Positions 1 through 47,319 of a stretch of 64,000 nt of DNA are shown in pieces. The translations under genes were made by a program, and so were the position numbers. This stretch comes from Parcubacteria group bacterium (GTDB lineage: Bacteria; Patescibacteriota; Minisyncoccia; Moranbacterales; UBA2206), in NCBI GenBank assembly GCA_041661275.1, contig JBAZUU010000001.1:35493-99492 (forward strand), written 5' to 3'. How positions within the stretch are numbered: the stretch's first letter is position 1; every line of letters begins with the position of its first letter. A model generated the notes under the pieces. It worked only from the letters and a program-made list of their open reading frames with translations. It was not told the DNA's origin and did not search any database.

Positions 1-290
1 ACAATGAAATGGTTGGATTTACACTCCCTCAATCCAAATTTCATATCATTTCTCTTCTTGATGAGAAAGATCACGCGCAAAACAAAAAAAGATTTTCTAT
101 CACTGCTAATATCTTAAAGAAAAAAGGCATAGGAACAACTATTATCAAGATGCCCAATGATAATATTTTCCATACTATTTTTTCAACAATGGTGCTCGGT
201 GATTGGGTTTCCTATTATCTGGCCTTGGAATATGGCCAGGATCCAACTCCGGTCGATATAGTGGAAGACCTGAAAAAGGAACTGGAATAA
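1..290 (+). CDS. C-terminal fragment of bifunctional phosphoglucose/phosphomannose isomerase-like protein (5' end outside window)
   Basis: ORF runs in from the window edge. The C-terminal motif LGDWVSYYLALEYGQDPTPVDIVEDLK is typical of PGI/PMI family C-termini. Confidence 0.5.
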   Translation, partial: NEMVGFTLPQSKFHIISLLDEKDHAQNKKRFSITANILKKKGIGTTIIKMPNDNIFHTIFSTMVLGDWVSYYLALEYGQDPTPVDIVEDLKKELE

Positions 291-310
291 AAAACTTTTA
301 ACATAATCTT

Positions 311-790
311 ATGCAAAAGAAAAAGCGCAAAAAAATTGTCGTGGCGGTGAGTGGCGGGTTCGACCCTATTCATGCCGGACACATCAGAATGTTTTATGAA
401 GCCAAAGCGCTTGGAGATGAATTGGTTGTGATTTTGAATAATGACAATTGGTTTGGAATTAAAGGGCGAACTCTTTTTATGCCCGAACAGGAACGTAAAG
501 AAATTATCGAAGCCCTAAAGCCGGTAGACAGAGTCATAATCAGCAAACATAAAAAGTCCAAGAAAAAATTTGATCGCACCACAAGAGAATACAGTGTTTG
601 CCAGGAACTGGAAGAACTAAAACCGGATATTTTTGCTAATGGTGGCGACCGCTTCAAGGATGATGTTCCGGAAGTTGAAACCTGCAAAAAAATTGGTTGC
701 AAAACGGTTTTCAATATCGGCCATGGCGGCAAAGTTCAATCCAGCTCATGGCTTTTGGGGAAATACGTGAAAAAAGCCAAGAAAAAATAG
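311..790 (+). CDS. cytidylyltransferase-like nucleotidyltransferase (HIGH motif, RfaE domain II / glycerol-3-P cytidylyltransferase-like)
   Basis: N-terminal VAVSGGFDPIHAGHIRM is the (H/T)xGH nucleotidyltransferase signature. Size is about 159 aa. Confidence 0.6.
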   Translation: MQKKKRKKIVVAVSGGFDPIHAGHIRMFYEAKALGDELVVILNNDNWFGIKGRTLFMPEQERKEIIEALKPVDRVIISKHKKSKKKFDRTTREYSVCQELEELKPDIFANGGDRFKDDVPEVETCKKIGCKTVFNIGHGGKVQSSSWLLGKYVKKAKKK

Positions 791-829
791 TAGAATAAGG
801 CTTAAGTTAGGCATAATTAGGACTTGGGC

Positions 830-858
830 TTGACAAATTCTCGCGAGTAGTGTAATAT
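830..858 (+). promoter_or_regulatory. sigma70-like promoter (TTGACA-17-TAATAT) in front of a long rnj leader
   Basis: TTGACA at 830-835, a 17-nt spacer, TAATAT at 853-858. No ORF follows before rnj. Confidence 0.4.
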
Positions 859-1119
859 TATGTGTTATACTACTTGTACTATAAGCATTCTTCTTTTTCC
901 CTTACCCTTCTTGATAACCTTGTCTTTTAATTTGAAAGGCTAAATTTGAAATTTTACCTGCCTACCGGCAGGCAGGAGTCAATTTTAATTGAATTTTTAA
1001 TTCAGATTTAAATCAGTTTATATTTGAATTAAAATTTTAAATTAAAAATTTAAAATTTCTTCTTAAATAATTAATCAATCGCTCATTTTATAATGAGCAA
1101 TCTTGTTACCAATTTTATG

Positions 1120-1222
1120 CCCGGTGGTACAACTGCCGAGCACATAACATAACTTGATATTTAACTTAATCAACTCGAACGATTTATTATATTTAATAAA
1201 TTATCGTAGTTGTACCACCGGG
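1120..1222 (+). promoter_or_regulatory. 15-bp inverted repeat (cccggtggtacaact / agttgtaccaccggg) forming a long stem that ends 1 nt before the rnj ATG
   Basis: Arms at 1120-1134 and 1208-1222 are perfectly complementary. The second arm abuts start codon 1224. Confidence 0.4.
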
Positions 1223-1223
1223 T

Positions 1224-3014
1224 ATGTTTAGAAAACAAAATATGAATCCGGCTCCGGCCGTGAGTGCGCCTGTGTCTAGCAGCGCGTTTTCGCCGAAAGC
1301 GGATTTCCAGAGACGTCCCCAGCCTATCGGCATCGGGCACGCCAGACACAATTTAAGGATCATTCCTCTCGGAGGTCTGGAAGAAGTCGGTCGCAATATG
1401 ACCATCTTTGAGTATGGCCAAGATATCATTATCGTGGACATGGGACTGCAATTCCCTGATGAAGATATGCCAGGAATCGATTATATCATTCCTGATATAA
1501 CCTACCTCAAAGGAAAAGAAAAAAATATCCGCGGCGTAATCATCACCCACGGACACTATGACCACATCGGCGCTATTCCTCACCTTATGGAGGCGTTGGG
1601 CAATCCACCGATATATATGACGGAGCTGACGCGTGGAATCGTCATGAAGCGCCAGGATGACTATAAGGACAAACAGCCTTTGAATATCCACACTGTGAAA
1701 AAAATTGACCGGATACGATTAGGTTCGTTTAACATCGAATTTTTTCATGTTAACCATACTATTCCGGATGCGGTTGGTCTTGCTATTAATTCTCCAGTGG
1801 GAACCGTCATCCATACCGGCGACTTCAAGTTCGACCATTCCCCCATTTCTGACGCGCCGGCTGATGTGGCCAAGATTGCGCGACTAGGCAGCGAAAATAT
1901 TTTGGCTCTCATGTCCGATTCCACCGATTCCAAAACTCCGGGATATTCTTTGAGTGAGTCAAAAATTGCGGAAACGCTCGATGATATTTTCGAGCAAACT
2001 AATGACGGACGACTAATCTTCGCTACATTCTCCTCGCTAATTTCCCGTATCCAATCGGTAGTAGCGGCCGCGGAAAAACACGGACGCAAAGTGGCCGTTG
2101 ATGGCTATTCTATGAAAACTAACGTGGAAATTGCGAGAACACTTGGATATTTGCAGACTAAAAAAGGAACATTCATTCCGATCAACAAAGTCAATGAATT
2201 TCCAGATAATAAGGTGGCTATTCTTTGCACCGGCTCTCAAGGCGAATCAAACGCCGTGCTTATGCGTATCGTCAACGGTGAGCATAGATTCGTGAAAGTG
2301 CATAAAAATGACACTTTCGTCCTTTCTTCTTCGGTCATTCCCGGAAACGAGAGAACAGTCCAGTCTATTATGGATACGATTTATCGGAAAGATGCCAAGG
2401 TGATAAATTACAAAATGATGGACGTCCACGCCGGAGGTCACGCGCGTCAGGAAGACTTGAAAATGATGATCAATCTTGTTCGCCCCAAATATCTTATTCC
2501 CGTTCACGGCAACTATTATATGCTCAAACTCCATGGAGATTTGGGCAAGGCCGTGGGAATGGAAGAAAAAAACATTCTCATTGGTGAGAACGGAAAAGTG
2601 ATCGAGTTCGACTATCGTCAGAACGGAAAAGTCACTTCAGAAAAAGTACCAACCAACCACATAATGGTGGACGGACTGGGTGTCGGCGACATCGGACAAG
2701 TAGTCCTTCGCGATCGCCAAGTTCTCGCCAAAGACGGAATGTTTGTCATTATTACGATAGTTGACGGAAAAACCAAAAAAATCATTGGAAAACCCCAAGT
2801 GACTTCTCGTGGATTTATTTTCGTCAAAGAAAATTTTGATCTGGTGAACGCTACTAAGAAAAAGGTAGAAGAAGTCATCGCCGCCAAAACCAAACCCGGT
2901 GAACCGGCTAACTGGGATTATGTGAAAAACAATATCCGGGAAGTGGTCGGACAATTCTTGTATACTAAAACTCAAAGAAGACCAATGGTTCTGCCGGTGG
3001 TGATTGAGGTGTAA
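1224..3014 (+). CDS. rnj: ribonuclease J (metallo-beta-lactamase / beta-CASP RNase)
   Basis: HGHYDHIGAIPHL is the HxHxDH motif. N-terminal LRIIPLGGLEEVGRNM is present. The 596-aa size matches RNase J. Confidence 0.9.
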   Translation: MFRKQNMNPAPAVSAPVSSSAFSPKADFQRRPQPIGIGHARHNLRIIPLGGLEEVGRNMTIFEYGQDIIIVDMGLQFPDEDMPGIDYIIPDITYLKGKEKNIRGVIITHGHYDHIGAIPHLMEALGNPPIYMTELTRGIVMKRQDDYKDKQPLNIHTVKKIDRIRLGSFNIEFFHVNHTIPDAVGLAINSPVGTVIHTGDFKFDHSPISDAPADVAKIARLGSENILALMSDSTDSKTPGYSLSESKIAETLDDIFEQTNDGRLIFATFSSLISRIQSVVAAAEKHGRKVAVDGYSMKTNVEIARTLGYLQTKKGTFIPINKVNEFPDNKVAILCTGSQGESNAVLMRIVNGEHRFVKVHKNDTFVLSSSVIPGNERTVQSIMDTIYRKDAKVINYKMMDVHAGGHARQEDLKMMINLVRPKYLIPVHGNYYMLKLHGDLGKAVGMEEKNILIGENGKVIEFDYRQNGKVTSEKVPTNHIMVDGLGVGDIGQVVLRDRQVLAKDGMFVIITIVDGKTKKIIGKPQVTSRGFIFVKENFDLVNATKKKVEEVIAAKTKPGEPANWDYVKNNIREVVGQFLYTKTQRRPMVLPVVIEV

Positions 3015-3049
3015 TCATTTCCTAAAACCTGGTTTTAGGATTAAAAAAA

Positions 3050-3072
3050 GGCGCGCCAACCCGCGTCTTTTT
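3050..3072. terminator. GC hairpin plus T-run (A-run upstream) after rnj; possibly bidirectional
   Basis: Stem ggcgcg/cgcgtc with one wobble pair, followed by ttttt at 3068-3072. Confidence 0.4.
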
Positions 3073-3114
3073 ACAGTCGGTTGACATGGTTTGCACGCAT
3101 GATAAAATAGCATT

Positions 3115-3471
3115 ATGGAAAATGACAAATTAGAAAATGAATATATAACTAAGAAGGATTTGGAAGAACAAACCCAAGTCATTCTTACTGCTGTTGATTC
3201 TGTTCTGGACAAGCGCTTGACTGAAAACCTGAAAAAAGTTGAAGATAATTTACGTAGCGAAATATATATCGTAAGAAATGAGTTGAATGAAAAAATTGAC
3301 GGCGCAAAAAACGAATTGAAACATGATATAAATAATGTTCAAACCTTGATAGATGGATATGTGAAAGAGCAGGAGGAGTTTAAGCAAGAATTTGTTATCA
3401 TGAAAGAGGAAATGAAGCAGATAAAGCAGATCATAAAAGAAAAGCTTGGGATAGAAATACAGGCGATCTGA
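3115..3471 (+). CDS. hypothetical coiled-coil protein
   Basis: 118-aa ORF, charged, heptad-like. Flanked by terminators. Confidence 0.45.
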   Translation: MENDKLENEYITKKDLEEQTQVILTAVDSVLDKRLTENLKKVEDNLRSEIYIVRNELNEKIDGAKNELKHDINNVQTLIDGYVKEQEEFKQEFVIMKEEMKQIKQIIKEKLGIEIQAI

Positions 3472-3507
3472 TTCTTATTTTTATAATTTATTTTTATAAT
3501 TTTTTTG

Positions 3508-3531
3508 AGGCGCGAGCAATCGCGCCTTTTT
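3508..3531. terminator. bidirectional rho-independent terminator between convergent genes
   Basis: aggcgcga-gcaa-tcgcgcct gives a perfect 8-bp stem, then ttttt. Confidence 0.6.
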
Positions 3532-3550
3532 GCTGCCAAAAAAAGTACGG

Positions 3551-3904
3551 CTAAGAGACTTTCCTAAACGTAATTTTATACACCGGCTCGTAGGCATTAT
3601 TATATTCATCTTTCAGCGCCACAGTTTTGCCGTCCATGAGCGTAGTCATAGCGATATCGGTCACCATCTGATCCAGTTCCGCCGCCTTGGCTTTCAGTTT
3701 TTCATATTCATCCCAACGCGCGCCCAATCGCGATTGCGTCATAGTTTCAATTTGCTTTTTCTTCTCGCGCAATTCTTTCACTTTCGCAGTCGTCTCTTCA
3801 TATTCATTGGCATTGACCAACGCGTCTTTATACTCTTTCCTTATCCCCTTTTGCGATTTCTTATTCTCTTGCAACTCATTGTAGACTTCTTGAATGTCCC
3901 GCAT
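3551..3904 (-). CDS. hypothetical protein (charged, coiled-coil)
   Basis: 117-aa ORF with clean intergenic boundaries. Confidence 0.45.
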   Translation of the reverse strand: MRDIQEVYNELQENKKSQKGIRKEYKDALVNANEYEETTAKVKELREKKKQIETMTQSRLGARWDEYEKLKAKAAELDQMVTDIAMTTLMDGKTVALKDEYNNAYEPVYKITFRKVS

Positions 3905-4226
3905 TTTTGTATTTTTAATAAATTAAAATAAGCCGGGTGGGCTACGAAGACAATTTTAGCATAGAATTATTATTTCTTAAAATCTACCTCATCCGCCCCG
4001 ATAAGAATCGGGGCACCTTCTCCTTATAAAGGAGAAAGAAATAATGTAACGTATCCTCCCTCTCCTTTATAAGGAGAGGGATTATGGGTGAGGTCGAGGG
4101 AGTCACTTGCTACTTTATACTTGCTACTTTATACTAAAATCATATGAAAAACCCCGTAAAGAAATTTGCCAAAAAAGTTTGTCTACAGGGTTGATCTAGA
4201 AAAATAACCAAGAAAAATCTATCTTT

Positions 4227-5222
4227 ATGGCCAGTCAAATTTCTAACGGGGCGCGGCGCATCTTTTCCGGCATACAGCCGAGTGGAAACTTACATTTAGG
4301 CAATTATCTGGGCGCCATCAAAAATTGGGTCAAACTCCAGGATGAGTATGATTCTATTTTTTGCGTGGTTGATCTTCACGCCATCACCGTTCCGCAAGAC
4401 CCGGAGAAATTACGCCAGCAAACCTTAGAAGTGGCAAAGGTATATTTGGCGTCCGGAATAGATCCGGAAAAATGTTCATTGTTTGTTCAATCTCATGTTA
4501 GTGAACACACGGAATTGATGTGGATCCTAAATACTATTACAAAAATAGCCGAGCTGGAAAGGATGACTCAATTTAAAGATAAATCTGCCAAGTCCGGAGT
4601 GGACGCGGGACTCTTAAATTATCCCGTTCTTATGGCCGCTGATATTATTCTATACGACACAAATTTAGTTCCCGTCGGAAAAGATCAGTTGCAACATATT
4701 GAAATTACCAGAACACTGGCTAATCGTTTTAACAAAAAATTCGGTGATACTTTTGTGGTTCCTGAACCTTATATCACCAAAGAAGGCATGAGAATTATGG
4801 GCTTGGATGATCCAACAAAGAAAATGTCCAAATCCGCCGCGTCTGATTATAACTATATTGCCCTCACCGATGACGAAGAAACCGTACGAAGAAAAATCAA
4901 AAAAGCCGTCACTGATTCCGGATCAGAAATTGTTTATAGCGGAGATAGGCCTGCTCTGATGAATCTCATCAACATCTATTCCCTACTGTCCGATATGCCA
5001 ACCAAAGAAATCGAAGAAAAATTCAAAGACAAGGGTTACGCTGATTTTAAAGCCGATTTAGCTGATGTAATAGTAAATTTCCTAAAACCGTTGCAAGAAA
5101 AAATCGCCGATTTGTCAGACGAAAAAGTTTTGGAAATTCTGAAGGCTGGAGCCAAAAAAGTCCAGCCAATTGCCAAAGCAAAGTTGAACGAAGTAAAAAA
5201 GAAAATCGGTTTCATCCTGTAA
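4227..5222 (+). CDS. trpS: tryptophanyl-tRNA synthetase
   Basis: Class I HIGH-like motif (GNLHLGNYLG) and KMSKS are both present. Length is 331 aa. Confidence 0.9.
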   Translation: MASQISNGARRIFSGIQPSGNLHLGNYLGAIKNWVKLQDEYDSIFCVVDLHAITVPQDPEKLRQQTLEVAKVYLASGIDPEKCSLFVQSHVSEHTELMWILNTITKIAELERMTQFKDKSAKSGVDAGLLNYPVLMAADIILYDTNLVPVGKDQLQHIEITRTLANRFNKKFGDTFVVPEPYITKEGMRIMGLDDPTKKMSKSAASDYNYIALTDDEETVRRKIKKAVTDSGSEIVYSGDRPALMNLINIYSLLSDMPTKEIEEKFKDKGYADFKADLADVIVNFLKPLQEKIADLSDEKVLEILKAGAKKVQPIAKAKLNEVKKKIGFIL

Positions 5223-16939: not shown

Positions 16940-18037
16940 TTATAGTGATATAATATCACTATAACCCTCCCTGTCCAGCTCACTGCTGTGGATAACTTTT
17001 ATCTTCCTCGTAATTCCATGCCCGTTGCAGTGTTTCAAAATCCCCGAATACGACTGCAAGCTCTGGCCAAACGATTCTCTGGAAACTAATTTTTCTCGAA
17101 ACATCTTATGTTTCAGTGATAACTTATGGAATATCCGCCTCTTTGTTTTTGTCCTCAAAACTCTATGGTGCGGTAAAACTATATATCCCAGAAAATCAAT
17201 TCCTTGCCTTAGTTTTCTGATAATAATTTTATCAGGATGCAGTTTTAATTTTAATTCCTGTTCGAGAAACTTTCCTATTTCTGGAATTAATTTTTCTAAA
17301 TATTTTTTGTCTTCCAACAAAATAATGAAGTCATCGCAATACCGCAGATAGTATTTTTCTTTTAGCTTATGTTTAATAAACTGATCGAGTTCATTGAGAT
17401 AAATATTGGCAAATATCTGGCTGGTCACGTTGCCCAGCGGCAATCCTGAATCGAAACTTTTGATAATTGTTTCAATAAGCCAAATAGCATTTTTATCGTC
17501 AATCTTCTTTTGAATAAGTTCCAATAATATTTCCTGGTCAATCGAATCAAAAAACCTTTTGATATCGCATTTGAGCGCGTAAATATTTCTATTATTATTT
17601 CGACTGGCTTTCCGACAAAATTGCTCTAATCTTAGAACCGCCCGGTGCGTTCCTTTTTCTACTCGGCAGGAATATGAATCAAAAATGAAAATTTTGTCGA
17701 AAATGGGGTATAATATTCTGAAAATGGCGTGGTGCAGAACGCGATCTCGCACGCAAGCTTTATGAATTCGCCGCAATTTTGGATCGTGCACGTTAAATGC
17801 GGTATAATGGGAATGTTGGTAGGTTTTGTTTTTTAGCTCGCAGTGGAGTTGAAACAAGTTATCTTCCAGACTAAATTCAAGTTCCTGAACGTCTGGCTTA
17901 TTTTTTTTGCCATTTCGAAATTCCTGCCAGGCTAAAAACAAATTTTCCAAGCTAATAATTTTTTCAAATATATTATGACAAATTTCGTCCCCACTAAAGC
18001 CCCCCCCCAAGGAGTTTCCGGTATTAATGTTGTTCAT
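16940..18037 (-). CDS. diversity-generating retroelement (DGR) reverse transcriptase
   Basis: RT domain with the YCDD active site. Motif 4 reads LGNVTSQ, the DGR-specific [I/L/V]GxxxSQ form, in place of QGxxSP. Located 330 bp from a TR/VR pair. Confidence 0.85.
   Translation of the reverse strand: MNNINTGNSLGGGFSGDEICHNIFEKIISLENLFLAWQEFRNGKKNKPDVQELEFSLEDNLFQLHCELKNKTYQHSHYTAFNVHDPKLRRIHKACVRDRVLHHAIFRILYPIFDKIFIFDSYSCRVEKGTHRAVLRLEQFCRKASRNNNRNIYALKCDIKRFFDSIDQEILLELIQKKIDDKNAIWLIETIIKSFDSGLPLGNVTSQIFANIYLNELDQFIKHKLKEKYYLRYCDDFIILLEDKKYLEKLIPEIGKFLEQELKLKLHPDKIIIRKLRQGIDFLGYIVLPHHRVLRTKTKRRIFHKLSLKHKMFREKLVSRESFGQSLQSYSGILKHCNGHGITRKIKVIHSSELDREGYSDIISL
16941..16998 (-). promoter_or_regulatory. 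promoter/operator element A: 23-bp palindrome tatagtgatataatatcactata (extended -10 TGaTATAAT / TGaTATTAT), upstream TGGACA -35, and 13-mer AAGTTATCCACAG
   Basis: Palindrome at 16941-16963. On the minus strand it reads TGGACA-16-TGaTATTAT ahead of the rhuM start 16922. ctgtggataactt at 16986-16998 is the reverse complement of AAGTTATCCACAG. Confidence 0.55.
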
Positions 18038-25456: not shown

Positions 25457-25705
25457 TCAAGCTCGGTTTTTTATTATCTTCATCTTTTCATATCTCGTCA
25501 AATTCTTTATCCGATATTCTTCTTTTAGGGCCTTTGATCTGGTCTTGATTTTTTTGGAGTATACTAACTTCACCGGCCTTCGGCCTCGGGTATATTTCGC
25601 GCCCAACTTTCCGCTGTTATGCCCGTTTATTCTTTTCTTGAGATCGACCGCGATTCCGGTATAAAAAGTTTTGTCTGAACATTGAAGAATATACAGATGA
25701 TACAT
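25457..25705 (-). CDS. GIY-YIG nuclease family protein (YhbQ/UPF0213-like)
   Basis: YILQCSDKTFYTGIAVDLKKRINGHNSG is the GIY-YIG signature. Length 82 aa. Confidence 0.75.
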   Translation of the reverse strand: MYHLYILQCSDKTFYTGIAVDLKKRINGHNSGKLGAKYTRGRRPVKLVYSKKIKTRSKALKEEYRIKNLTRYEKMKIIKNRA

Positions 25706-42977: not shown

Positions 42978-43307
42978 CTAGTATCTGTCTCTTCGTCCGC
43001 CTCCGAAACCACCTCTGTCTCCACCTCGATTGAAACCACCAGATCTCTGGGGTCGATCGCCTTGGGGACGAGCTTCGTTGACAGTCAGAGTTCTACCTTC
43101 GAATTCCTGTCCGTTGAACATTTCAACAGCTTTTTTGGCTTCCTCGTCAGTCGCCATTTCTACGAAGCCGAAGCCTCGAGAACGTCCGGACATTTTGTCC
43201 ATGATGATGGTAGCAGAGACAACTTGTCCAGCTCCAGCGAATAGAGAACCCAAGGAATCCTGGGTAGTATTGTAGGAAAGTCCTCCTACATACAACTTTT
43301 GACTCAT
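42978..43307 (-). CDS. glycine-rich RNA-binding protein (RRM)
   Basis: RNP2 LYVGGL, RNP1 RGFGFVEM, RGG-rich tail. Confidence 0.8.
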   Translation of the reverse strand: MSQKLYVGGLSYNTTQDSLGSLFAGAGQVVSATIIMDKMSGRSRGFGFVEMATDEEAKKAVEMFNGQEFEGRTLTVNEARPQGDRPQRSGGFNRGGDRGGFGGGRRDRY

Positions 43308-43449
43308 TGATTTTCTTATATGAATTTACTTTGTAAGGTGACCTTCTCTCTTGTTTACTCTGTTGCGGAATTTAACCGCTCACTTAGCTTACACTAACTT
43401 CATATAAGACTAAAAACGAGAAACGAATGCGAGAAAACTTACATTAATC

Positions 43450-43480
43450 CTAGTATACACTTTTGAGCCAAAATGTCAAC
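43450..43480 (-). promoter_or_regulatory. strong promoter (TTGACA-16-TGtTATACT) for the RRM gene, leaving an about 140-nt 5' UTR
   Basis: Read from the minus strand. Confidence 0.45.
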
Positions 43481-43514
43481 CCAAACAGCATAAATCCCCT
43501 GATATTGATTAACT

Positions 43515-43570
43515 AAAGCATTTATCCACAGTTTCCGATATTTGCCGGTTGACAGAAATCGGCTGCTCTG
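43515..43570 (+). promoter_or_regulatory. TTATCCACAG box plus consensus promoter TTGACA-17-TATACT
   Basis: Box at 43515-43524, -35 at 43542-43547, -10 at 43565-43570. Confidence 0.5.
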
Positions 43571-43589
43571 CTATACTGCCGGAGTAAGA

Positions 43590-43655
43590 TAAGATTATGA
43601 AAACAGCGAAACAAACATTCAAGCTAGTCTTTGGGATGTTGATTACCGTCATTGG
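43590..43655 (+). CDS. 21-aa hydrophobic peptide MKTAKQTFKLVFGMLITVIGR (type I toxin-like / membrane micropeptide candidate)
   Basis: GGAG sits 10 nt upstream of the ATG. A consensus promoter lies 20 nt upstream. A terminator hairpin follows at 43706-43732. Confidence 0.4.
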
Positions 43656-44774
43656 ACGATAAATTTTCGCTGGGAACATAGCATAAAAAAAATAGACAAA
43701 CGGATCCCGGCGAAAAGCGGGGTTTTTATTTTTCAAAGTTCCTTACAACACAAATTCTATTAGCCGGAGAGTGCGTAAAATTTAATTGTGCATTGTCCGG
43801 CAAACGGAATGATTTCCTTGAAAGAAAGATTCTTGAAAACTAATTTGCTTGAATTTTTGCCGACTCACTCGTTTAAATATGGCAGTGATGAATCAGGCTC
43901 TCCTAAAAGGAGAAAAAATAATTTTCAACAAACCGGTTTTCAATAAATTAATCAATCAAGGAAATCTTCTAGATGCCAATCTGCAAGAGGGGTAAGTCAT
44001 CCTACAACCGAAACGGATAGGGGGGAACATGAATCAGCCAAAGAAAGTGACCGAGAAAAGCTTGACCGGAAATAAAGGAAATCTCCTGAAATTTCCCGTT
44101 CCGATAGATGAACGGGAACCTGTCAAGCCACCGAGCTCTCATGAAATCAAGAGGGCTTTCTCTGAACTTTTTATGGCAAAAGCCGTCCAGACGACTTAAC
44201 TCAGTCCCATAAACTCCAAAAGAGTATGGGCATATCAACACAAGGGAGAGGTGCAATCCGCTTCTCCCTTCTCTCAAAAAATTTATTACTTTTTATATAA
44301 CCACCACACAAAAATGAATTTTATATTTCTCACAAATAGCATAATTATGATTATTAACCGACCAGCGTCGAGTTGATTTTGGTTTCCGAAAACTAATTAG
44401 GATCAACCCGACGCCAGTCGGTTTTTTTATTGATTAATAACAACATTATCCTCCTCTCCCTTCGGGAGAGGATGTCAGCCTAAATTTTTCTTAAAATTTT
44501 GGCTGACAGGAGAGGGAAAAGGAGATCTATCATGAAAAAACCGGAAGAAGAACAATGCAAGCTGTCAACTGAAAGCCAAAAGAGAATGCGAAGAATCGCT
44601 CAAAAAGAAGGCAAAAAAAGTGCGTGCGAACTTTGCATCCACAGGGAGAAATGTAAAAAATAAACCCCTAACTTTTTCCTAACATGGAATGAGTTGCAAG
44701 CCGAAAAGTAAAACATACTTTTTGGCACCAGCCGAGCTTACCCCCTTACAGCCCGGCCTTTTTATTGCACCTTA

Positions 44775-44803
44775 TTGACAAGATAAACTACATCTGCTAA
44801 ATT
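44775..44803 (+). promoter_or_regulatory. promoter TTGACA-17-TAAATT
   Basis: Read directly from the sequence. Confidence 0.4.
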
Positions 44804-44815
44804 AAGGGTACTGTT

Positions 44816-44890
44816 ATGAATCAAATTATAAACAACCTACTACTTCTATTGCTTAGCCCGCACGCGGTGGTTGTTTCGTTTCGTTCATAA
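44816..44890 (+). CDS. 24-aa hydrophobic peptide MNQIINNLLLLLLSPHAVVVSFRS (second micropeptide module)
   Basis: The promoter is directly upstream. A terminator (ccgcc-gtgtg-ggcgg plus T7) follows at 44918-44940. Confidence 0.35.
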   Translation: MNQIINNLLLLLLSPHAVVVSFRS

Positions 44891-45297
44891 GCAGTAGTTA
44901 AAACGAAGAAAAACATTCCGCCGTGTGGGCGGTTTTTTTATTTGCGGCTCCCTACATTATTCCCTTCTCCCTTTTAGGGAGAAGGTGGCTCGAGTCCCGC
45001 AATAGCGGACGAGAGACGGATGAGGGAAAACCATGGAATAGTGAGTTTATAAATTAAATTTTAATTTTTAAACTGGCTGTTTCAGAGGGTTCTTTCAACA
45101 ACTAACAGGAGAAAGAGTTATGATTTTTCTTAACGACATACCTCAAATAATCGAAGATTACGAAGCGGTAAGAAAGATTTACCGCAAAAGAGCAAAAAAA
45201 GAGCGGCTTCATCGATTTATCGTAAGATGCCGCATGTTTATTACTCGTTTTCCTTGGATTCACATTTAATTTCAAAGGTCAAAGAAAGGAAGGTACT

Positions 45298-45486
45298 ATG
45301 GACGCGACAGTTCTTTTAACGCAAGGCCTTAGACCACCGAAAGCAAGGGTTAAAGTCGATGAAAATCCCCCCTGCTGCAATTGTGGGGATAAAACACGCA
45401 GGGTCAACGATGCCCTGATCTGGTGTGAATCGTGCAACACAAAAATGAACCCGGCGGGTGAAGAAATAGAGGGATTTGTTTTTTAA
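45298..45486 (+). CDS. small zinc-ribbon protein (CCNCG...CESC)
   Basis: 62 aa. AGGAAGG RBS. A terminator hairpin follows. Confidence 0.4.
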   Translation: MDATVLLTQGLRPPKARVKVDENPPCCNCGDKTRRVNDALIWCESCNTKMNPAGEEIEGFVF

Positions 45487-45675
45487 ACAATACTGCAAAT
45501 CTTTCAAGAGGCGGCTGGATATCCACATCTCCAGACCGCCTTCTTTTTATCCCCCACTATTGATTTATCTGAAAGATTTGCTATAATCATCTTGTTATCT
45601 ATGTATAGTTCCGTAAGGAACTATTTTTCAGCCAGAGGCTGATCCGCCTATGGCGGAAAAAATTGAATATTACAA

Positions 45676-45750
45676 TCCGGCGTAGCTCAATGGTAGAGCA
45701 GTTGACTGTTAATCAATTGGTTGTAGGTTCGAGTCCTACCGCCGGAGCCA
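45676..45750 (+). tRNA. tRNA-Asn (anticodon GTT), CCA encoded
   Basis: Acceptor stem tccggcg/cgccgga. D-arm agctcaatggtagagc. Anticodon loop ctGTTaa. T-arm gtagg-ttcgagt-cctac. Confidence 0.85.
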
Positions 45751-47319
45751 CATGGGATTTGCGTCGCCGAAAGCGGCGCTTTTTCTTTTTCTGGAGCGGT
45801 TTTTAAGAGGTTCGAACGCGCTCAAATTTTCCTCTTCCGGATTTGAGACGAGAATCATCGGCAGAAGCGCGGAATCCGTGTTAATATCGACTTTTTTGTC
45901 TTTTAGGAGGAGGTTCGAACCTAAGGCGGATAAAATTATTTTTCGGGCATGCTGACCTCTCTCGGTGAAGGATTCCTGAGCGTCACTGGCAAATTTGAGA
46001 ACATTATCGGCCGTCTCCAGCCAGCTATCGACTCGGCTGTCCGTATCGTTCAAAAGTTCGTGCAGTTTCGCTTTTTCCTGATTGGTCTTTGATTTTTTGC
46101 GCGTAAATTCTTCTTCGCTGATTTCTCCGGCCGCGCGCATATCGATAAGCGCGTCGAGTTTCTGGACGCAGGCTTCGTAGTTTTTTTGTTGGTTGGCGAG
46201 AATGGCGTTTCGATCGTCAGCCTCTCGTCCGTTTTCATTTTGCAGCCACTTCATCGCCCAGTCATGAAATTCCTGCGGCGGTCGCACTTGAGACAAGGTG
46301 CTTTTAACTTGTCTTTCCAGTTCTTTCACTTCGATGCATTTCTGACTGCACGGACCTTTTCTTTTGGTGCAATGATAGTAAGTGTAATTATGAATATTCC
46401 CGTTCTTATTTTTCTTAACTTTATTTTCCGCCGTCACCATAGCTCCGCATTCGCCGCAACGGATCATGCCGGTATAAGCGAAAGTATGCGTTTCCGGTTT
46501 CGGTTTACTGCCTCGGCCGAGAAGCGCCTGGACGCGATCATATTCGTCGCGGGTGATCATCGGTTCGTGTTTGCCCTTGTGCCAATTCCCACTGCCTTGC
46601 GGCCATTCAAACCAGCCGTAATAAAATGGATTATATAGCACCCGATAGAATCCGCTTCGCGCCAGCTTTTTCAATCCCCATTTCTCGACAGCAATTTCAT
46701 GAACTCTCGGCGCCGTATAGGTGCCACTTAAAATCATGTCGAACATCTTTCGGACAAGCGGAAACATTTTCGAGTCTTTGCGAATTGTTTTAAAGCCTTT
46801 CTGTTTGTCAGGCGTATTCATATATCCGATCGGCGCCGGGCCCGGATGCCAACCGAGCTCCACCTTGCGTCGGAGCCCTCGTTTCACATCGATGCCTTTG
46901 TTATCATTTTCCAGCTTGGCCTGGCTGCAAAGAAGATTGAGCAGAAATTTATCGTTGGGCGTATTTTTGAAAGGCTGGCCGGGTGTTTTTATTTCCTGCA
47001 GTTTATTTTGATCCATTAAATAAACCAGATAACCAGTGTCAACAGAATTTCTGGAAAGCCGGTTGGGATGCCAAGCTAGAATTCCGTTGGCTTCGCCTTT
47101 CTCAATCCGTTTTATCATTTCATTGAAAATCTCCCGACCCGGCGCTTTGGCCGAATATGATTCTTCAAGCAGACTCACGATTTGGAGTTTTTCACGTCTG
47201 GCCAGCGCTTCCAGTTCACCCTTTTGCGAATCGATTGAAAGCACCTGGCGGTCTTCTTGCTCCGATGACTTTCGAGCGTAGAGAAAATATTTAAGTTTTG
47301 ATTGCACTTCCTGGTTCAT
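45736..47319 (-). CDS. large serine recombinase (resolvase catalytic domain, recombinase domain, Zn ribbon); 3' end overlaps the tRNA-Asn 3' end
   Basis: N-terminal YARKSSEQEDRQVLSIDSQ holds the catalytic serine. Length 527 aa. The stop codon lies inside the tRNA T-arm/acceptor. Confidence 0.85.
   Translation of the reverse strand: MNQEVQSKLKYFLYARKSSEQEDRQVLSIDSQKGELEALARREKLQIVSLLEESYSAKAPGREIFNEMIKRIEKGEANGILAWHPNRLSRNSVDTGYLVYLMDQNKLQEIKTPGQPFKNTPNDKFLLNLLCSQAKLENDNKGIDVKRGLRRKVELGWHPGPAPIGYMNTPDKQKGFKTIRKDSKMFPLVRKMFDMILSGTYTAPRVHEIAVEKWGLKKLARSGFYRVLYNPFYYGWFEWPQGSGNWHKGKHEPMITRDEYDRVQALLGRGSKPKPETHTFAYTGMIRCGECGAMVTAENKVKKNKNGNIHNYTYYHCTKRKGPCSQKCIEVKELERQVKSTLSQVRPPQEFHDWAMKWLQNENGREADDRNAILANQQKNYEACVQKLDALIDMRAAGEISEEEFTRKKSKTNQEKAKLHELLNDTDSRVDSWLETADNVLKFASDAQESFTERGQHARKIILSALGSNLLLKDKKVDINTDSALLPMILVSNPEEENLSAFEPLKNRSRKRKSAAFGDANPMWLRR

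Follow-up and report, generated by a model that had tools for sequence, protein, structure and literature searches.

Leader-peptide attenuation is textbook knowledge in Proteobacteria and has been predicted or shown in Actinobacteria and Firmicutes. Bacteria of the candidate phyla radiation (CPR, or Patescibacteria) have minimal genomes with few recognised regulators or riboswitches, and mostly depend on a host or a community for their amino acids. Here we describe two short transcription units, module 1 and module 2, in a 64,000-nucleotide stretch of contig JBAZUU010000001.1 from a Parcubacteria group bacterium (hereafter the window). Each unit comprises a promoter, a small open reading frame (ORF) and an intrinsic terminator, and both are probably ribosome-dependent (leader-peptide) transcription attenuators. 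We assign module 2 as a Leu-sensing attenuator with good confidence, and on balance we place module 1 in the same class. The mechanism is a known one; the lineage and the regulated genes are new. Full-text literature searches turned up no paper that connects leader peptides or attenuators with Patescibacteria or the candidate phyla radiation.

Among described systems, leuL (Rfam family RF00512) and the trp, his and ilv attenuators resemble module 2 in having a short leader ORF, which in module 2 contains consecutive Leu codons. As in leuL and the enterobacterial attenuators, the RNA can be divided into four regions that follow a 1:2, 2:3 and 3:4 pairing logic, the regulatory codons lie just ahead of region 2, and in two related loci (L165 and L174) an intrinsic terminator stands ahead of leuA, as in the leuL system. 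Unlike leuL, the modules match no Rfam family, their transcripts appear leaderless or nearly so where the leuL leader ORF is led by a Shine-Dalgarno (SD) sequence, and the downstream genes in the window encode tiny proteins rather than a leu operon, in a CPR/Patescibacteria-type host.

In Actinobacteria, short regulatory ORFs with runs of cognate codons lie at the 5′ end of transcripts ahead of leuA, ilvB or cys genes (PMC1262725; bioRxiv 10.1101/834739). The modules are like the actinobacterial ilvB and leuA leaders and the mycobacterial leaderless poly-Cys ORFs in that the ORF sits at the 5′ end and can carry a codon run. They differ from the actinobacterial leuA LEU element, for which a pseudoknot pairing the Leu codons with the leuA SD is described, and from the mycobacterial Cys short ORFs, which are without obvious terminators (PMC1262725), in having an intrinsic terminator and a competing antiterminator. 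In Staphylococcus aureus, a Leu-rich leader peptide controls branched-chain amino-acid genes by attenuation (PMC5794164). Module 2 likewise has a Leu-rich leader. The single biosynthetic operon of S. aureus contrasts with the at least four separate cassettes found here, which mostly precede small ORFs, and both lineage and sequence differ.

The modules and their conservation in related loci

Both modules lie within a 2.4-kb stretch that has no ORF of 100 or more amino acids and is bounded by a gene for an RRM RNA-binding protein (42978-43307, minus strand) and by tRNA-Asn (45676-45750); positions in the window are on the plus strand unless indicated otherwise. The same DNA is present on the 299.6-kb metagenome contig k141_323660 of ENA ERZ27249449, and the closest proteins with a named source are from Patescibacteria, above all Candidatus Moranbacteria. 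Relatives were reached through the adjoining 178-aa (amino acid) protein in metagenome contigs and through the contigs encoding homologues of the RRM protein. The interval from the RRM gene to tRNA-Asn, with both modules, recurs in eight independent related CPR metagenome loci (L083, L102, L090, L094, L162, L165, L174 and L175), and promoter, ORF and terminator of both modules are all found in 8/8, with L162 being the closest relative of the window. In this set L090 is identical to L169 and L170 over the interval, L094 and L097 are the same stretch of DNA, and L165 is grouped with L166 and L168; the RRM homologue loci L172 and L176 are not syntenic and are not among the eight. With the RRM protein as the anchor in GTDB genomes, identity was 72% or less and no module homologues were found there, and nhmmer iterations returned mostly unrelated terminators at distant loci. 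Searching the window with Rfam at the gathering threshold found only tmRNA and tRNA, and searching 43250-45700 with E up to 10 gave nothing relevant to the modules, including no match to the RF00512 Leu leader. Between 42800 and 46000 we counted 11 promoter-like sites (9/12 consensus matches as the threshold) against 6.7 ± 2.7 in shuffles, and 10 terminator-like sites against 4.3 ± 2.1.

The module 2 promoter (44775-44803) reads TTGACA, 17 nucleotides (nt), (TG)cTAAATT, the ORF (44816-44890) encodes the 24-aa peptide MNQIINNLLLLLLSPHAVVVSFRS, and the terminator (44918-44939; CCGCCGTGTGGGCGG) consists of CCGCC (44918-44922), a GTGTG loop, GGCGG (44928-44932) and T7 (44933-44939). A previous, sequence-only reading had placed the promoter, the ORF and the start of the terminator at exactly these coordinates. 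Frame, start and stop are kept in all eight relatives, whose peptides include MNIKQNNLLLLLLTRHTVVVSKCS, MKNFQNNLLLLLPIQHPVVVFKSA, MKLNQNNQALLLLLLTQHPVVVFKLS and MQNYSNNLLLLLLPTPSGGCF, and length changes are whole codons. The six Leu codons of the window (44837-44854) correspond to a run of 5-6 codons across homologues, where 55 Leu codons use all six synonyms. Pairwise comparison of the last four Leu codons gives 171 nucleotide differences, 171 of them synonymous and 0 nonsynonymous. Because variation in the Leu run is synonymous-only and indels are whole codons, the alignment shows that selection acts on the translation of these codons. The C-terminus behaves differently: the residues "VVV(F)K" correspond to the RNA segment GGYGGTTGTTT, L175 keeps the GGCGGTTGTTTTTAG nucleotides and reads them in another frame (SGGCF*), and GTG changes to GCG (Val to Ala) in L090 and L174, solely where the pairing partner is CCGCC. 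The frame switch in L175, together with the GTG-to-GCG changes that track the pairing partner, indicates that the "VVV" C-terminus is an RNA constraint and not a peptide constraint.

The promoter, ORF and terminator described for module 1 are also real, with true coordinates 7 nt to the right of those first given. The promoter (43549-43577) has TTGACA at 43549-43554, a 17-nt spacer and (TG)cTATACT with the -10 hexamer at 43572-43577, matching 11/12 consensus positions with a TG extension, and is conserved in relatives. It is followed by a 21-aa ORF (43597-43662; MKTAKQTFKLVFGMLITVIGR) and a terminator stem (43702-43725), with T-runs (T5-A-T5) to 43733. The ORF is in frame in the eight relatives with indels in multiples of 3; the peptides include MKTAKNTNKILGVFITVIRR, MDAAKKTYKLIFGIFTVLIGQ, MKTSAKKTRNIFTLSFIIVIGR, MKNSAKKIYNKFILSFIAIGR and MRNSAKNTLKIILISSVFVGREFFAGESQ, and extend to 29 aa in L090, L094, L174 and L175. 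The N-terminus (S-A-K-K) and the C-terminus (V-I-G-R) are conserved and coincide with RNA helices. The middle of the ORF is highly variable, yet it stays rich in Ile, Leu, Val and Phe.

Judged from the promoter positions, transcription would start at about 43583-43585 for module 1 and at about 44809-44811 for module 2, the latter 5-7 nt ahead of the ATG. In the eight relatives the ATG of module 2 lies 6-7 nt past the -10 hexamer, and in most relatives that of module 1 lies 6-9 nt past it, so the module transcripts are best read as leaderless or nearly so. The GGAG that had been proposed as the ribosome-binding site (RBS) of module 1 (43581-43584) is not credible, since it lies 4-7 nt past the -10 hexamer, at or before the likely start, and is absent from most relatives. 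Given that frame, start and stop are kept, that indels are multiples of 3 and that the Leu run varies synonymously only, both ORFs are very likely genuine small ORFs that are translated.

The modules had also been described as stand-alone. This does not hold, as an RBS and a small gene come after each terminator, with no usable promoter in between at the scan threshold. There is no plus-strand promoter-like site between 43733 and 44029, and the sole such site between the window terminators and the next RBS-preceded ORF (45095-45124) is weak (9/12), with a -10 that overlaps the start codon of the 49-aa ORF and thus cannot serve that gene. In L165 (1497-3026) and L174 (about 1-1354), the module 2 terminator is followed by the RBS AAGGAGG and then a 509-aa leuA (2-isopropylmalate synthase), and the consensus scan found no promoter-like site between the terminator and leuA. 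The LeuA protein scores above curated NCBIfam cut-offs (NF002086, 714 against 532; TIGR00973, 673 against 599). By analogy with known systems, a Leu-codon leader ahead of leuA, as in these two loci, is how classical leucine attenuators are arranged. The CPR loci retrieved showed no leuBCD genes.

The nearest relatives of the CPR LeuA are found on Syntrophobacteraceae-like contigs (L177 and L178) at 70-77% identity, which suggests that the CPR leuA was horizontally transferred. Like module 2, L177 and L178 have leader ORFs with a Leu run, MTGSLFLLLLLLLLSS... and MTSSLFLLLSLLLNPHS..., and a GC-rich terminator separates these ORFs from leuA; we take them as an independent analogue that speaks for the attenuator reading. 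Outside the Leu codons, the leader RNAs of L177 and L178 show poor alignment to module 2. As this alignment is unconvincing, we set aside the idea that module 2 is homologous to the Syntrophobacteraceae-type leuA leader; common descent of the leaders, by co-transfer with leuA, is possible.

Alternative pairings and predicted ribosome positions

We propose that in both modules a strong sigma-70-type promoter would give a transcript starting at, or a few nucleotides before, the AUG of a leader ORF of 21-24 codons, and that the position of the first translating ribosome would select between two RNA pairings that exclude each other ahead of the U-tract. In module 2, region 1 (44829-44842; TAAACAACCTACTA), which covers Asn-Asn and the first Leu codons, could pair through AAACAAC with GGTGGTTGTTT in the "VVV" codons of region 2 (44865-44877; CGGTGGTTGTTTC, with a 5′ extension at 44855-44864). 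Region 2 could alternatively pair with region 3 (44904-44922; CGAAGAAAAACATTCCGCC) through AAACA..CCGCC, which includes the 5′ half of the terminator, and regions 3 and 4 (GGCGG) would together form the terminator. When charged tRNA-Leu is scarce, the ribosome would stall on the last Leu codons and cover region 1 and the 5′ extension, leaving region 2 free to sequester the terminator and allowing read-through into the downstream gene. A ribosome that reaches the stop codon would cover region 2, and the terminator would form.

An analogous scheme can be drawn for module 1, where region 1 is CAGCGAAA (43604-43611, codons 3-6), region 2 is TTTTCGCTGGGA (43664-43675, 1 nt past the stop codon), which pairs through UUUUCGCUGGGA, region 3 is TCCCGGCGAAAA (43705-43716) and region 4 is GCGGGG (43717-43722). 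The partner of region 2 in region 3, UCCCGGCGAAAA, comprises the 5′ half and loop of the terminator. A ribosome at the stop codon would mask region 2 and lead to termination, and one delayed earlier in the Ile/Leu/Val/Phe-rich ORF would permit a 12-bp antiterminator. A further conserved hairpin, CGTC-ATTG-GACG, is located at 43647-43658.

The pairings are kept in the 8-9 sequences of both modules, with a few compensatory changes. In module 2, RNAalifold predicts helix 1:2 (AAACAAY with GTTGTTT) in 9/9 sequences, as well as pairing of the start-codon region with the stop-codon region. In 9/9 the best duplex between the ORF tail and region 3 takes in the whole 5′ half of the terminator, with a free energy (dG) of -11 to -21 kcal/mol and z of -1.7 to -6.0. 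The terminator halves covary (CCACC/GGTGG, CCGCC/GGCGG, CCCC/GGGG), and the helices of the window and L162 differ by compensatory substitutions (CACGCGG/CCGTGTG against CACATGG/CCATGTG). For module 1, helix 2:3 is paired in 94.7% of cells across 8 sequences, compared to 42-66% with a slid partner; it has 2 compensatory pairs, and 3/500 shuffles reach the observed covariation score. Helices 1:2 and 3:4 are 89% paired against 55% or less for slid controls, and the terminator stem covaries in L090, L094, L174 and L174b (CCCGG/CCGGG). Coming from few sequences, these module 1 pairing counts are supportive and not decisive. What we find conserved is the promoter, the frame, the Leu codons and the alternative pairings, along with a position directly upstream of leuA in relatives. 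Conservation of the coding frame and of alternative RNA pairings together is the signature of a leader-peptide attenuator.

We modeled the effect of the ribosome by folding each RNA up to the U-tract with the ribosome footprint held single-stranded, for every A-site position. The standard footprint extended from -15 to +12 around the A site, the 3′ edge was varied from +10 to +16, and unpairing of the 4 nt before the U-tract served as the read-out. With the standard footprint, these nucleotides are predicted to be unpaired in module 2 solely for A-site positions on the last 1-3 Leu codons, in 9/9 homologues. With varied footprints the prediction holds in most, with L094 and L174 peaking below 0.5 at some settings and L083 having a baseline of about 0.5. 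Folding of a third cassette, M3 (described below), predicts the same unpairing for an A site on its last Ile codons. Module 1 gives a clear picture in four sequences (the window, L162, L165 and L102): the antiterminator is predicted to be favored for almost any ribosome position in the ORF, and the terminator to form once the ribosome occupies the last codons or the stop. Elsewhere the effect is weaker, and predicted read-through is confined to ribosomes on early codons.

Evidence against attenuation and rival explanations

Several points weigh against reading the modules as attenuators. With 8-9 related sequences the covariation statistics are weak, and for helices 1:2 and 3:4 of module 1 the covariation is not distinguishable from shuffles. 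Module 1 has a mixed Ile/Leu/Val/Phe-rich stretch and no homopolymeric codon run, and its predicted folding profile is noisy in half of the homologues. The window genes downstream are tiny proteins without a Pfam match, not amino-acid genes, so that module 2 could be an orphan. Transcription start, leaderless initiation, termination, stalling, read-through and the signal for module 1 are all deduced from sequence. In Streptomyces, according to work cited in PMC1262725, leader-peptide-like elements do not always act like classical attenuators. Finally, in several module 2 homologues, including the window, an unmasked region 2 is predicted to fold into a long hairpin, which takes in region 4 as well and reaches right up to the U-tract. 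If this hairpin terminates efficiently, regulation may be weak or inverted, and we considered constitutive termination by it and count it as evidence against our model. Because the long hairpin otherwise abuts the U-tract, module 2 read-through would be expected only for stalls late in the Leu run. We retain the attenuator model, since a ribosome on the last Leu codons would mask, and so remove, the extension of the hairpin.

The sequence-only reading had offered type I toxins or regulatory membrane micropeptides, and of this the regulatory part stands. That each module is instead a stand-alone gene for a type I toxin or a membrane-active micropeptide strikes us as highly improbable. The modules do share with hok/sok, tisB/istR, ibs/sib and ldr/rdl a short, partly hydrophobic ORF under coding constraint and a short structured transcript with its own strong promoter and terminator. 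They lack the antisense partner, however: no conserved antisense promoter-like site was found in any of the 9-11 homologues examined per module. Hydrophobic stretches are 6-14 residues long and broken by Pro, His, Gln and Ser, too short for a membrane-spanning helix. Nor does the peptide itself appear to be what is kept, as the C-termini show no conservation at the peptide level, with another frame used in L175, ORF lengths vary between 20 and 29 aa and the middle of module 1 is highly variable. The downstream genes, moreover, are linked in cis and have no promoters of their own, with leuA lying directly downstream in two relatives. We would thus be cautious about labelling promoter/tiny ORF/terminator units as toxins or small RNAs (sRNAs).

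Independent trans-acting sRNAs of about 125-150 nt with incidental ORFs, or attenuator-derived sRNAs that act mainly in trans, are improbable, though they would account for the strong promoters and terminators, for the conserved helices and for predicted folding energies somewhat lower than those of shuffles (z -2.2 and -2.9). Over 23 nt, the start region of module 1 and the 3′ region of module 2 are 78% complementary, which might be taken in their favor, but complementarity of this quality is common by chance. It had been suggested that conserved RNA structure without conserved ORFs would point to sRNAs; the outcome here is mixed, since the coding frame is conserved and the alternative RNA pairings are conserved too. 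The synonymous-only variation of the Leu run and the whole-codon indels speak for selection on translation, the codon run is placed relative to the switch as an attenuator needs, and leuA is directly downstream in relatives. There is precedent for an additional role in trans: in Sinorhizobium meliloti, the terminated trp attenuator transcript rnTrpL, which acts in trans, and the leader peptide peTrpL have functions of their own (PMC7298713, PMC7968998). By analogy, a second role is possible for abundant short module RNAs, and terminated RNAs or peptides might also act in trans. A different possibility, that the modules are orphan relics of leu or ilv attenuators left after loss of the biosynthetic genes and without present function in the genome of the window, seems unlikely to us. 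It draws on the observations that leuA follows module 2 in L165 and L174 only, that unrelated small ORFs follow in the window, L162, L083, L102, L090 and L175, and that the genes after the modules vary even among close relatives. Against it, promoter, frame, Leu run and pairings are intact in all six lineages without leuA at the site, and the window and L162 differ by compensatory helix changes. One zinc-ribbon ORF family follows module 2 in L083, L102, L090 and L175, with its N-terminus in the window, and four cassettes are kept in one 64-kb window. For module 1 by itself, we also weighed a general sensor of translation stress or antibiotics, comparable to the erm and vmlR stalling attenuators, in place of an amino-acid sensor. 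The missing single-amino-acid run would fit, as would an antiterminator predicted for a ribosome delayed almost anywhere or absent. We nevertheless think this improbable, as no resistance-type gene lies downstream of module 1, the variable ORF middle stays rich in Ile, Leu, Val and Phe like ilv-type leaders, and the neighboring cassettes are amino-acid specific.

Further cassettes, downstream genes and neighboring features

Two more cassettes in the window have the layout of the modules. M3 (44314-44431), situated between the two modules, consists of an Ile-rich leader ORF (MNFIFLTNSIIMIINRPASS, 44314-44376), a terminator (CCGACGCCAGTCGG with T7, ending at 44431), a long hairpin with its 5′ arm at 44356-44377 and its 3′ arm at 44402-44423, and a conserved CGAC-N4-GTCG mini-hairpin. 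The cassette is conserved in L083, L090, L094, L174 and L175. M4 is on the minus strand (25460-25285), where the promoter TTGACA-17-TATATT is followed after 9 nt by the Gly/Ser ORF MELRAKNQIVCGGGSSSAHTAVVFESTR (25422-25336). Its GGTGGTT can pair with AACCACC, the same switch as in module 2, and its terminator is CCACCC...GGGTGG with T5. L162 has an additional cassette (2771-2940, on the reverse complement of positions 1-4560) with an aromatic-rich leaderless ORF (MKKISNQFYFYFTWFTDQAGLRFSNIS; MKKISNQFYFYFTWFTD...) and its own terminator.

Directly past the terminators of M3 and module 2 lie paralogous stretches (44443-44520 and 44954-45030), about 511 nt apart. Both contain a hairpin, TCTCCCTT..GGGAGA, that occurs only twice in the window (0 expected), followed by GAC(A/G)GA(G/T)GAGGGAAAA. 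The sequences suggest that M3 and module 2 were duplicated together with a post-terminator leader, and the purine-rich arm of the hairpin could mask or mimic an SD.

After module 1, the first RBS-preceded small ORF (44029-44199) encodes 56 aa and is weakly conserved with a 49-aa ORF of L162. M3 is followed by a Cys-containing ORF of 43 aa (44532-44663) with the RBS AAAGGAG, which is 44% identical to a 41-aa ORF of L162. Two RBS-preceded ORFs follow module 2: one of 49 aa that is called as a gene (45120-45269) and one of 62 aa with CxxC...CxxC (45298-45486), and the unit closes with a terminator at about 45525-45548. In L083, L102, L090 and L175, module 2 is followed by a CPRCG zinc-ribbon protein of 63-73 aa, and the N-terminus of the 49-aa ORF in the window matches this protein. 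Comparison of the window with L162 shows recognizable conservation of the small downstream ORFs, which nevertheless change more quickly than the leaders. Pfam gave no match for any small downstream protein, and a word-indexed homology search with the zinc-ribbon ORF returned the query itself only. M4 precedes a 63-aa ORF with an RBS (25233-25042, minus strand). This ORF ends in ...RNGNGVAK, resembling the ...NGNG C-termini of the post-M3 ORFs in L102 and L090.

Taken together, we offer as a tentative idea, which may well be wrong, that a presumably amino-acid-auxotrophic CPR bacterium keeps at least four amino-acid-specific, leaderless or near-leaderless attenuators that have lost their link to biosynthetic operons and now control the expression of small Cys-rich or zinc-ribbon proteins. 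In this speculative bank the cassettes would respond to Leu, to Ile, to Gly/Ser and to mixed branched-chain amino acids and Phe, with an aromatic-rich one added in a relative. If true, this would constitute a starvation regulon that senses tRNA charging. Several codon-specific attenuators within 64 kb would show that CPR bacteria monitor tRNA charging directly, and would give a handle on small, fast-evolving proteins that gene callers largely miss, by tying their expression to specific amino-acid shortages. The pattern is a recognizable one, with an ATG 6-9 nt past the -10 hexamer, a codon run and competing helices. It raises the question of why such an organism keeps several codon-specific attenuators ahead of tiny proteins.

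The TTATCCACA box (DnaA-box-like) that the sequence-only reading had noted ahead of module 1 is indeed there, at 43522-43530, upstream of the promoter. The exact sequence occurs in 5 copies in the window (5265, 16987 minus, 27952 minus, 31592 minus and 43522) against 0.52 expected, with 0/100 shuffles reaching 5, and it precedes the module 1 promoter in 5/9 sequences, window included. Four of the five copies read (G/T)TTATCCACAG and sit upstream of promoter-like sequences, and those at 16987, 27952 and 31592 are followed by AGTGATA...TATCACT palindromes. From its sequence and distribution, the box may be a transcription-factor site.

Other features of the interval are minor. Just past the module 1 terminator, a hairpin GCCGG...CCGGC at 43763-43803 is kept in L083 and L090. 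A match to the THF riboswitch at 43769-43870 is probably due to chance, with 21 bits against a gathering score of 36 and an E of 0.3. On the minus strand, a strong promoter (TTGACA-16-TATACT, 43452-43479) faces the RRM-protein gene, leaving a 5′ untranslated region of about 140 nt (43308-43445) that is partly conserved in relatives and may be regulatory. At the other end of the interval, tRNA-Asn and a gene for a 527-aa large serine recombinase (45736-47319, minus strand) overlap, with the 3′ end of the tRNA covering the final 15 nt of that gene, in what resembles an integration junction. Between module 2 and tRNA-Asn the gene content, leuA included, differs in every relative, and this fits an insertion hot spot. 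Small ORFs of 81-85 aa resembling GIY-YIG nucleases recur beside cassettes or tRNA-Asn, at 25457-25705 (minus strand) in the window, at 358-609 in L162, at 2119-2364 in L175 and also in L083, where the ORF lies about 60 nt downstream of a partial tRNA-Asn copy and extends to the intact tRNA-Asn.

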